Source of the DNA: Pseudomonas phage Presto
Strand: one strand, 5' to 3'
Sequence record: PQ533662.1
Length of the DNA stretch: 64,000 bases
Numbering within the stretch: position 1 is the stretch's first letter; each line of letters opens with the position of its first letter. The position numbers were made by a program, and so were the translations under genes. Positions 47,779 to 49,707 of this stretch are shown in pieces. A model generated the notes under the pieces. It had not been told where the DNA came from and did not search any database. It saw only the letters and a program-made list of their open reading frames with translations.

Positions 47779-48045
47779 ATGCTGATCGTTCGGCTTGAGC
47801 AGGGGTGGACCCTTAAGCTTGATAGGCAGGTAGGCAGTTCAGGGAAGCACGGCATTTGGTCGTTTCACTGTGCCGAAAGCACCTACACTCCGGCTCCGGC
47901 TGAGCTACTGCGCCATGCGGCCATTCTGCCGGCGGAACCCAAGGATGGACAAAAGGTAGAGGTGGCTATTTGCGACACGCGCATGCCGCAGGACGAATGG
48001 CGGCCTGTTGGGAACGGCGTTGCGACCTATGAGGCCGAGCGCTGA
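47779..48045 (+). CDS. hypothetical protein
   Basis: 88 aa. Confidence 0.35.
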   Translation: MLIVRLEQGWTLKLDRQVGSSGKHGIWSFHCAESTYTPAPAELLRHAAILPAEPKDGQKVEVAICDTRMPQDEWRPVGNGVATYEAER

Positions 48046-48716
48046 GGCTCGAGCAGATGGGCGCCCTGGTTTCGGACGTTCCCCACTTCGCGGCTCACCG
48101 GATACCAAGTGAACGACTCGCTCGGCTCACCCTGGTGGAGCACGATCTGCTCCGCGCGTTCCGGCGGCGTCGCAGGGTCAAGCCACTCGCGGGCTAGGTC
48201 GGGTGGGAGCGCTACCGGTCGGCGGTCGTGAATGTCGACCATGCCGCCGGCAGAGTCGGCGGTGATGATGACGAATCCATGCTGTTCTCCCGGTTCGTCA
48301 TCGAGGCCGGGGAACTGGCCGATCGCTGCGCACAAGACCGGCGAGCCGTCGGCGTGCTGGATGTGGTACGGCTGTTTCCGCGGGCTGCCGCCTTCATCAA
48401 CCCATTCGAACCAGCCCGAGATCGGCGTCAGCGCGCGATGGCGCCACGCGGCGCTGAAGAACCTGCCGTGGGCGACCTTCTCCGCCCTGGCGTTGATCGG
48501 CGCCGCGCGATCACGGGCCCAGAACGGCCTCCATCCCCATCTGATCGCCTGGGCGACCAGGGCGTCCCCTTCCAATCTGAGCGTCGTCACTGCCGTCGAC
48601 GGCGCGACGTTGTAGCGCTGTGGCTGTTCGCCGACCAGGTTGACCAGCATGGCCGGCATCGACAGCGCGTCGACGAACTCGTGCAGCCCGGTGTACTGGC
48701 TGAGCCTTCCGCACAT
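48027..48716 (-). CDS. SOS-response-associated peptidase (SRAP/YedK, DUF159)
   Basis: N-terminal MCGR with the catalytic Cys2. Confidence 0.8.
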   Translation of the reverse strand: MCGRLSQYTGLHEFVDALSMPAMLVNLVGEQPQRYNVAPSTAVTTLRLEGDALVAQAIRWGWRPFWARDRAAPINARAEKVAHGRFFSAAWRHRALTPISGWFEWVDEGGSPRKQPYHIQHADGSPVLCAAIGQFPGLDDEPGEQHGFVIITADSAGGMVDIHDRRPVALPPDLAREWLDPATPPERAEQIVLHQGEPSESFTWYPVSREVGNVRNQGAHLLEPQRSAS

Positions 48717-48725
48717 TATGGTGCC

Positions 48726-48818
48726 TCACACAGTAGACGCAGCCTTCATGACCAGATAGACGCACATCGCTATACCTGCCGCGAGCAGCATGCCTATGGC
48801 AATGAAACTGATCTTCAT
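48726..48818 (-). CDS. 30-aa membrane peptide
   Basis: MKISFIAIGMLLAAGIAMCVYLVMKAASTV. GAGGG RBS. Its stop is 9 nt before the SRAP ATG. Confidence 0.4.
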   Translation of the reverse strand: MKISFIAIGMLLAAGIAMCVYLVMKAASTV

Positions 48819-49011
48819 GAAATACCCTCGTTGTGACCTGCGATGAGCTGCTGATTGCAAAGAGGGGAAGCAGCAGAAAGTGGAGACTCCGGGAGGTTGG
48901 GCAGCTCCTGGAGTCTCCGTGACCATAGGAGAAAGTCACCCAGATAAGGCTAGACATGTTTCGCTTTGAGGCAAGCGAAGCGGCGCGGTATGGGCTATCG
49001 CCGGAGAGGGG

Positions 49012-49527
49012 CTATGGCGGCCAACGCCACGGCCGGAAGTCGCTGGGGATTTGCTCGACAAGTAGCAGCGTACCGCCGGCGTCGAGCTTGATCTCCAGTC
49101 CATGCACAACGCCGGCGCGATCAAGAGCCTGGCCCAGGCGCAGATAGACCTGCCCATCCAATGGATCCCGGCTGATGTAGCCCTGGCGCTGTCGTGCGGG
49201 TGCGGGCCCGTGGTAGATGCCCTCGTCGTCCACGCTCCCGACAACACGCCCGCCGTCGATCACGTCGTAGCAGCAGTCGGCGCAGTAGTGCGTCTCGCGC
49301 GTGATGCCGTGCTCGATCGCCCAGGAGTACATGCCGAGCGCGTCGGTGACCATATCGTGCCTGTCTTGCAGTCCTATCACCCCGCACTGATAGAGTTCGT
49401 TTGCCTCGGCCACCAGATACAGGTACTGCTCATCCGCTGCGTACAGCCAGGCGGCATGCTGCCGTATCGCGGCGAGCCATTGGGTGACGCGCTGGTTGTG
49501 GCAATGCCTGGGGTCGGAGTAGGACAT
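49012..49527 (-). CDS. Cys/His-rich protein of unknown function, LexA-box controlled
   Basis: 171 aa with RHCHNQR, YQCGV and HYCADCCYD clusters. The LexA box sits 36 nt upstream. Confidence 0.55.
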   Translation of the reverse strand: MSYSDPRHCHNQRVTQWLAAIRQHAAWLYAADEQYLYLVAEANELYQCGVIGLQDRHDMVTDALGMYSWAIEHGITRETHYCADCCYDVIDGGRVVGSVDDEGIYHGPAPARQRQGYISRDPLDGQVYLRLGQALDRAGVVHGLEIKLDAGGTLLLVEQIPSDFRPWRWPP

Positions 49528-49563
49528 GGAAATCTCCGGCAGTCGGGTTGGCCGGAAATTATG

Positions 49564-49579
49564 CTGTATGAATATACAG
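49564..49579. promoter_or_regulatory. LexA (SOS) box CTGTATGAATATACAG
   Basis: Matches the CTGT-N8-ACAG consensus. Confidence 0.8.
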
Positions 49580-49707
49580 CAATCATGAGGAGGCGACGAG
49601 CGGAATGCTTGCGCGGGGGCAGCCGTTTCAGTGGGTGGGCTGGGAGAAAATGTGGGTAATCGATAAGGTTCGAGCGGACATTACTCGGCCTAATGTCCGC
49701 CCTAGCC

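Follow-up and report, generated by a model that had tools for sequence, protein, structure and literature searches.

What are the SRAP proteins of bacteria and phages for, and do they work with partners? A three-gene locus of Pseudomonas phage Presto offers a handle on both questions. It lies on the minus strand of the 64,000 nucleotides (nt) from sequence record PQ533662.1 that we analysed (hereafter the window) and encodes, in the order of transcription, a protein of 171 amino acids (aa) at 49012..49527, a hydrophobic peptide of 30 aa at 48726..48818 and an SRAP protein of 229 aa at 48027..48716. A LexA (SOS) box stands in front of the first gene at 49564..49579. Comparison of the locus with its relatives leads us to view it as an accessory (moron) cassette, putatively induced by the SOS response, that a temperate phage of Pseudomonas aeruginosa carries at its att-proximal end and in which the 171-aa protein would act as a partner of SRAP. 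To this picture as a whole, which comprises repression and induction through LexA, shielding of abasic sites by SRAP and the partnership of the two proteins, we assign a probability of about 0.55.

The box, CTGTATGAATATACAG (minus strand, CTGTATATTCATACAG), is palindromic and agrees with the P. aeruginosa LexA consensus CTGTATAAATATACAG, taken from PMC13114513, at 15 of 16 positions, with one mismatch. It is the only CTGT-N8-ACAG in the 64-kb window. A preliminary description of this DNA had set an SOS box 36 nt before a minus-strand operon, and the distance from the box to the ATG of the 171-aa gene is exactly that (49528-49563). Read along the minus strand, the box is followed directly by CATAAT, then by a GGAG Shine-Dalgarno sequence and by the ATG at 49527. 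CATAAT (49558..49563, minus strand), which abuts the box, reads as a putative -10 hexamer, and a putative weak -35 element, ATGATT (49581-49586, minus strand), lies 17 nt upstream of it, with the box filling the spacer between the two. CATAAT is kept together with the box in phages F116, H66, U5, phiC725A and Fyn8. Host LexA would bind the box, and induction of the cassette would depend on RecA.

To see whether the box occurs beyond the window, we gathered 90 IMG/VR loci as well as phages from GenBank and assembly contigs, in which a script searched for sites upstream of homologs of the 171-aa gene. Upstream DNA of 60 nt or more was available for 66 loci, and 63 of these carry an AT-rich CTG-N10-CAG no more than 37 nt from the ATG of the family gene. 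Two further loci have the box at 138 nt, where the family gene and a Dam methylase gene diverge from a common promoter region, which brings the total to 65 of 66; the sole locus without a box is a truncated copy of the gene. The background density of CTG-N10-CAG in the same loci is 0.37 per kb.

Neither the sequence of the box nor its distance is fixed: at least eight combinations of the two occur in the family, and a remote clade of 225-aa proteins adds four more. In P. aeruginosa phages the box lies 35-37 nt from the gene, with CTGT or CTGG as one half-site; one lineage has a distance of 27 nt and a different box, the M. otitidis locus has 18 nt, and a distant subfamily has 7 nt with four different boxes. 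In the remote clade, named here after its member Meadow_21 of phage Meadow, all seven loci with upstream DNA carry a box, at 19 or 35 nt, in four distinct sequences. Loci in which SRAP comes first (L009 and L018-L022) have the box between SRAP and the family gene, and those among them with upstream DNA (L009 and L018-L020) have no box within 200 nt upstream of SRAP. Because the box precedes the family gene in 65 of 66 loci and sits between the two genes where SRAP lies upstream, we assign the LexA site to the 171-aa family and not to SRAP. The LexA control proposed in the preliminary description is thus strongly backed by comparison, through a box that is kept in essentially every locus examined, in differing sequences and at differing distances.

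In several distant homologs (L012, 5001-5036; P0053, P0055 and P0056) gene callers had extended the start through the box, which then appears in translation as NTVC.YSI. Judged from these sequences, the true start is the methionine of MDL..., 7 nt past the box. The mRNA of homologs of the L012 type may be leaderless, because 7 nt after the box leave no room for a Shine-Dalgarno sequence.

All three open reading frames (ORFs) of the cassette were found where they had been described, the last of them with the canonical MCGR N-terminus of SRAP. This protein, of the SRAP/YedK type that processes abasic sites, matches Pfam PF02586 at E=1.7e-47 with a score of 162 bits against a cutoff of 27.1, covers model positions 1-214 of 214 and aligns over its full length to Escherichia coli YedK (6kcq) at 1e-47. 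The active-site set is intact, with equivalents of Cys2 (MCGR), Asn75 (INAR), Glu105 (gwFEW) and His160 (DIHDRRP). By analogy with its characterised relatives, the phage protein would be expected to crosslink to abasic sites in single-stranded DNA (ssDNA) through a Cys2 thiazolidine.

Its companions are genuine genes as well. Between the window and F116, the ratio of nonsynonymous to synonymous substitution rates (dN/dS) is 0.16 for the 171-aa gene, 0.20 for the peptide in its frame versus 0.6 and 3.2 in the other two frames, and 0.08 for a convergent gene of 88 aa that borders the cassette; the figure for SRAP is invalid owing to an indel and was not used. The 171-aa, peptide and 88-aa ORFs are therefore under purifying selection. 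That the 171-aa ORF might prove to be non-coding had been named as one outcome that would sink the original proposal, and both its dN/dS and its membership of a PHROG family speak for a coding sequence.

What kind of protein stands first behind the box? PHROG families exist for all three cassette proteins, and the 171-aa protein belongs to PHROG 8717, which has no assigned function, with PHROG 19595 as a remote relative. The preliminary description had not been able to place it in a family. Word-indexed and exhaustive hidden Markov model searches returned a small family only, confined to P. aeruginosa phages and other Pseudomonas-group bacteria (Metapseudomonas, Ectopseudomonas), with 25 matches at E<=1e-3 in a library of 1.84 billion representatives; this host range rests on metagenome and IMG/VR matches and is thinly sampled beyond them. 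In the assembly collection the protein is indexed in 209 blocks. The 225-aa protein of phage Meadow (Meadow_21, PHROG 19595) is a remote homolog (hhalign probability 94.7%, E=5.6e-8), and an extra C-terminal CxxC...CxxC segment is confined to its clade.

With 13 close homologs alone, AlphaFold2 gave a model with a predicted local distance difference test (pLDDT) score of 45, which was unusable; after distant homologs had been added to the alignment the score rose to 90.9. The predicted fold consists of an N-terminal helical bundle (residues 6-77) and a C-terminal beta domain of eight strands (residues 86-159). It has no structural relative in PDB or BFVD, and the protein has no match in Pfam, NCBIfam, PADLOC or PDB sequence profiles; weak SET7_N/MORN-like matches (E of 0.005-0.06) were disregarded.

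The clusters of Cys and His on which the preliminary description had remarked are present in the window sequence but are not conserved. Every Cys/His column varies in the family and one homolog, P0039, contains no Cys at all. We consequently rejected a metal-binding Cys/His protein, and with it the putative metal-binding partner of the original proposal, as no Cys/His ligand is conserved across the family. The invariant residues are instead Y35, L38, G49, R56, Y87, G116 and G139. The protein is mildly acidic, with a pI around 5-6, and no catalytic set of acidic, His, Cys, Ser or Lys residues is conserved in its family. Because conserved catalytic and metal-binding residues are both missing, the 171-aa protein probably serves in binding or as an adaptor and is unlikely to be an enzyme or to hold a metal.

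The link between this protein and SRAP rests on their recurrent adjacency, which we surveyed in 78 informative P. aeruginosa-type loci. SRAP adjoins the 171-aa gene in 31 of them: it follows after a gap of 40-46 nt without the peptide in 16 loci and, together with a spacer and the peptide, in 15. Seven more loci have SRAP fragments, remnants of 25-124 residues. Other cargo is found in 11, and in the remaining 29 (37%) the 171-aa gene is followed by the convergent 88-aa gene with no cargo in between. The three-gene arrangement from which our analysis started thus recurs in F116 and in 15 of the 78 loci but is not obligate, the 171-aa gene occurring alone or with SRAP and no peptide. In the distant subfamily SRAP is adjacent in eight of ten viral loci, and in L009 and L012 besides, in both gene orders; in the Meadow_21 clade, 7 of 11 loci have SRAP next to the family gene. 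Across three divergent clades SRAP is the most frequent neighbour of the family, yet it is optional.

The main rival to a partnership builds on this optional character. The 171-aa gene might be a self-sufficient LexA-controlled moron with a function unrelated to SRAP; it could, for instance, modulate cell division, RecA/LexA signalling, or rival prophages or pyocins. The stretch from this gene to the 88-aa gene would then be a recombination hotspot, in which SRAP, defence-like genes and other cargo borrow SOS-inducible transcription. The 29 loci in which the gene stands alone fit such a slot, as does the variety of its other occupants: a pair made up of a helix-turn-helix (HTH) protein and an HExxH metalloprotease, similar to CapH/CapP or ImmR/ImmA, a PycTM-like membrane protein, and an Mrr-like and HATPase pair. 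The SRAP remnants point the same way, as signs of cargo turnover, and so does a box that tracks the 171-aa family and not SRAP. The rival falters on the adjacency to SRAP in three clades that are related at about 25-50% identity or by profile-level similarity, and on the occurrence of both gene orders. Where SRAP comes first it cannot borrow the LexA promoter, and hitch-hiking fails to explain why the two genes are neighbours there. We regard a cargo slot unrelated to SRAP as possible, at odds clearly below even, and prefer the partnership of the 171-aa protein with SRAP.

The HTH and metalloprotease pair was seen in H66-type phages (L005, 1517-2366; L036, L047, L069, L070 and L081), where an HTH protein with a weak match to CapH and an HExxH metalloprotease of PHROG 87 occupy the SRAP slot. 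The pair resembles the DNA-damage-responsive CapH/CapP or ImmR/ImmA pairs and lies behind a 171-aa gene with a LexA box.

Where does the cassette sit in its genome? It is not a chromosomal damage-response operon but a temperate-phage cassette beside attP and int, with a layout identical to that of p67-p69 of F116. It lies between late genes and attP/integrase, has its own predicted promoter in the opposite orientation and varies in presence among related phages, all of which characterise a moron or accessory cassette. The window and integrated lysogens are identical over 615 nt upstream of the 171-aa ATG and then part; the approximate att crossover is at 50142, 54 nt before the ATG of the integrase gene (50196-51497, plus strand; Pfam matches). 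An att site is annotated in the same interval, from the promoter of the 171-aa gene to int, in phiC725A. In integrated lysogens (L013-L017) the prophage ends with the cassette: the first host genes lie about 0.8 kb upstream of the 171-aa gene, and a host abhydrolase gene flanks the cassette. Because cassette, attP and int are contiguous in the window, its DNA is in a phage, episomal or tandem configuration and not that of a simple single lysogen.

The wider surroundings are composite. From position 33 to about 36660 the window matches the Mu-like transposable phage JBD93 (36,629 bp) with 100% identity, directly left of the siphovirus genes for tail and lysis that occupy 37-47 kb. Between 50 and 64 kb lie the integrase, DNA methylases, an S24-type CI repressor and a CII-like regulator, which resemble those of the P. 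aeruginosa phages Meadow, Turba and Lodos. Because the DNA identical to JBD93 adjoins siphovirus tail genes, the window, like the 78.8-kb record of phage Meadow, looks like a lambda-like genome with an inserted transposable phage, or like two adjoining prophages.

The convergent 88-aa gene (47779..48045, plus strand; PHROG 3944) overlaps the 3' end of SRAP by 19 nt. In nearly all loci, distant ones included, it marks the far end of the cassette as a conserved boundary, and it stays with the 171-aa family down to about 40-50% identity. We found no known domain and no solved relative for its product, and the defence models of PADLOC matched neither this protein nor SRAP nor the 171-aa protein. 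Between the lysis genes and the 88-aa gene, at 46780-47780, lies about 1 kb of DNA of low GC content (0.52 versus about 0.65 elsewhere) that contains no long ORF, has no Rfam match and is poorly conserved across the phage collection.

Other genes near att in related phages carry LexA-type boxes, too. Phage Meadow (L004) has such boxes at 10910-10925, 13025-13040 and 13783-13798, and L010 has one at 4847-4862. These boxes of att-proximal cargo stand upstream of a Dam methylase, in Meadow and in a Pseudomonas sp. prophage, before a small two-gene operon and before the 225-aa remote homolog. Judging from their sequences, carrying LexA-controlled morons appears to be common practice among these phages.

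A small, apparently non-enzymatic protein behind a LexA box at the far end of a prophage also follows the logic of 186 tum and the Gifsy antirepressors. The 171-aa protein might accordingly be an induction switch that inactivates the phage repressor upon SOS, with SRAP and the peptide as passengers. The resident CI repressor (59711-60376, minus strand) has a Peptidase_S24 autocleavage domain (1.9e-22), however, as have the CI of F116, with its GNSM motif, and the repressor of L009, and because of this domain all three can sense RecA directly. Moreover, alleles of the 171-aa protein that are 85-100% identical occur in F116-like podoviruses and in several siphoviruses, which is unexpected for an antagonist of one specific repressor, and Pfam, PHROG annotations, PDB and BFVD gave no DinI/Tum-like match in sequence or fold. 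We consider an antirepressor improbable and return to the reading of the locus as a damage-response cassette built around SRAP.

The last piece of that cassette is the peptide and the DNA before it. The peptide (MKISFIAIGMLLAAGIAMCVYLVMKAASTV; PHROG 38460), predicted to form a single hydrophobic helix, occurs in two allele classes of equal length that differ by conservative substitutions. An extended frame of 66 aa was rejected, its upstream ATG being absent from the F116-type allele. The tight coupling that had been claimed for the peptide applies to SRAP, from which it is separated by only 9 nt, with the Shine-Dalgarno sequence of SRAP overlapping the peptide stop codon, but not to the 171-aa gene, from which it is set apart by a non-coding, structured spacer of 193 nt (48819..49011, minus strand; fold z-score -3.2). 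Window-type and F116-type alleles agree at about 92% of positions over the first 97 nt or so of this spacer. These nucleotides are much more conserved than synonymous sites of the flanking genes. A hairpin at 48882-48918 is maintained through compensatory changes (three compensatory pairs in RNAalifold); it has no good U-tract and was not called as a terminator. Just past the stop codon of the 171-aa gene, CCUC can pair with GAGG, the peptide's own Shine-Dalgarno sequence, in four invariant pairs without covariation. Rfam holds no family for the spacer or its flanks, and the spacer was found solely in the context of this cassette. It may attenuate or couple the expression of peptide and SRAP.

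Could the peptide itself be the key effector? As a membrane toxin of the TisB/DinQ type, induced by SOS and restrained in its translation by a structured leader, it would cause growth arrest or persistence. Its small size, single hydrophobic helix, position downstream of the LexA-box promoter and purifying selection would suit this role, and so would the conserved leader, with a 5' end able to pair with the Shine-Dalgarno sequence of the peptide. The peptide is, however, present in only 15 of the 78 loci, always directly upstream of SRAP and translationally coupled to it; the long-range pairing amounts to four base pairs that do not covary; and the opposite strand has no called promoter or terminator pair and no Rfam match, the absence of motifs being weak evidence. 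We judge a peptide toxin at the centre of the locus to be very improbable. Least credible of all is that the box is a chance palindrome or the operator of another repressor (phage CI, PrtR or AlpR) and that the genes lie outside SOS control: by itself the loose CTGT-N8-ACAG pattern has an expectation of 0.7 per window, but a match to the full consensus with up to three mismatches only one of 0.05 in shuffled sequence, and boxes that vary internally but keep the CTG-N10-CAG frame stand before homologs as distant as about 25% identity.

We therefore propose the following course of events for the SRAP cassette. In the lysogen, host LexA on the box between the weak -35 element and the CATAAT -10 hexamer would keep the cassette promoter off. 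Upon DNA damage, RecA filaments would provoke the self-cleavage of LexA and the promoter would fire; a cassette under LexA control would be expected to respond before phage genes under CI control. The first product would be the 171-aa protein. Transcription that reads past the structured spacer would then yield the 30-aa membrane peptide and, by translational coupling, SRAP, in amounts that the spacer might set. Cys2 of SRAP would form its covalent thiazolidine link with abasic sites in ssDNA, as its homology to YedK and human HMCES suggests, and thereby shield these sites from cleavage while damaged host or phage DNA is replicated. The 171-aa superfamily would serve as an SOS-controlled partner that recruits SRAP, or that regulates SRAP or its DNA-protein crosslink; this is the weakest step of the scheme. 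A more specific version, in which the superfamily (PHROG 8717 and 19595) is an SOS-induced co-factor of bacterial SRAP that loads it on damaged ssDNA or controls the formation or removal of the crosslink, is attractive but doubtful. If true, it would provide the first dedicated bacterial partner for the YedK/HMCES pathway, and temperate phages would be adding genes of their own to the small LexA regulon of P. aeruginosa.

Several points weigh against the proposed scheme. At the promoter, a scan for consensus sigma-70 promoters called none at the box, where the -35 element is weak, and our literature search returned no report of LexA binding or induction for this locus. CTGG replaces CTGT in one half-site in about half of the P. 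aeruginosa copies, and because of this the strength of repression may vary among them. Many of the loci behind the count of 65 boxes in 66 are close phage relatives, so that the counts overstate independence and represent about a dozen lineages as independent observations, not 70; despite this kinship, the association of box and family is consistent. Further downstream, the hairpin at 48882-48918 could halt much of the transcription before it reaches the peptide and SRAP genes. As to the partnership, sequence and fold searches point to no binding target for the 171-aa protein. Finally, because 37% of the P. aeruginosa-type loci are without SRAP and the same slot holds unrelated cargo, the 171-aa protein must have a function that does not need a phage SRAP.

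What is new here, as far as the literature we searched goes, is the partner superfamily, its universal LexA box and the arrangement that recurs at the att end of Pseudomonas phages, with box, partner gene, SRAP and the convergent 88-aa gene. The idea of a new damage-response module survives in part: the partner family is new, but a connection of SRAP with the SOS response and with prophages had been suggested in 2013 (PMC3765255). With a confidently predicted and unmatched fold, a universal LexA box and recurrent adjacency to SRAP, the 171-aa family is a concrete candidate for an SRAP partner. For P. aeruginosa, an exceptionally small LexA regulon has been described, with about 15 genes in PAO1 (PMC13114513, PMC11787620). 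Common temperate phages, F116-like ones and many siphoviruses, bring their own putatively LexA-controlled genes, and the SOS response of clinical lysogens would therefore differ from that of reference strains. Should the cassette make its host more tolerant of abasic or oxidative DNA damage, it would count as a lysogenic-conversion trait with a bearing on fluoroquinolone exposure.

How does the cassette compare with known systems? Its closest counterparts are in F116 and in vB_PaeP_E220, which have the same three genes in the same order, p69 (171 aa), p68 (30 aa) and p67 (SRAP) in F116. There, likewise, a LexA box lies 36 nt upstream, the 88-aa gene is convergent and the integrase is next door, and the cassette proteins are 85-89% identical to those of the window. 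F116 is a podovirus (Hollowayvirus), whereas the late genes of the window are siphovirus-like. Its records annotate p68 and p69 as hypothetical or unknown, and p67 is named an SRAP-family protein in RefSeq; our literature search found no paper describing this LexA box or cassette.

Among LexA-controlled prophage genes, which are well known, one precedent is tum of coliphage 186, which encodes an antirepressor. The antirepressors of the Gifsy prophages are also under LexA control (PMC7067206). The present locus shares with both a LexA box before a small non-enzymatic phage protein, far from the immunity region and near the prophage end. It differs from them in that the phages here have self-cleaving S24 repressors, in the absence of similarity in sequence or fold, and in a gene that is common to phages of different types.

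E. coli TisB and DinQ are LexA-controlled small membrane peptides. The 30-aa peptide resembles them as a single hydrophobic helix of about 30 residues on a putative SOS transcript with a long structured leader, and departs from them in that no antisense RNA signal was found and in that it is coupled to SRAP and optional in the cassette. A different parallel is DUF1654. It, too, is small and uncharacterised and is encoded behind a LexA box in these phages, by p28 of F116 and, in L009, by the gene convergent to the 171-aa family gene. A near-perfect LexA box lies 16-18 nt upstream of the DUF1654 genes in F116 (p28, next to cI; L108, 17722-17737) and in the M. otitidis prophage (L009, 5859-5874). 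DUF1654 mutants of P. fluorescens are sensitive to cisplatin (bioRxiv 10.1101/072470). DUF1654 is a separate family with no detectable similarity to the 171-aa protein; we noticed no DUF1654 gene in the window, no Pfam scan having been aimed at it.

With E. coli YedK and human HMCES the SRAP of the window shares homology over its full length and the active-site residues. Unlike them, it is encoded by a phage, behind a LexA box, and is preceded by the gene of a coupled 30-aa peptide and by an unrelated partner gene. The yedK gene of E. coli is not known to be LexA-controlled. The name SRAP was coined from an association with SOS operons by Aravind, Anand and Iyer in 2013 (PMC3765255), who found the family in SOS-related operons and in temperate phages and prophages and suggested a role in damage sensing. 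In Acinetobacter a prophage SRAP is induced by damage (PMC3978071). The partners recorded in PMC3765255 include UmuCD, ImuA-ImuB-DnaE2, DinB, Ku/ligase and a RecD-like helicase, and small uncharacterised proteins, Zn-ribbon proteins among them, adjoin SRAP there as well; the 171-aa superfamily is not among these partners. Compared with those neighbourhoods, the cassette described here manages without a polymerase, and its LexA box tracks the partner gene and not SRAP.

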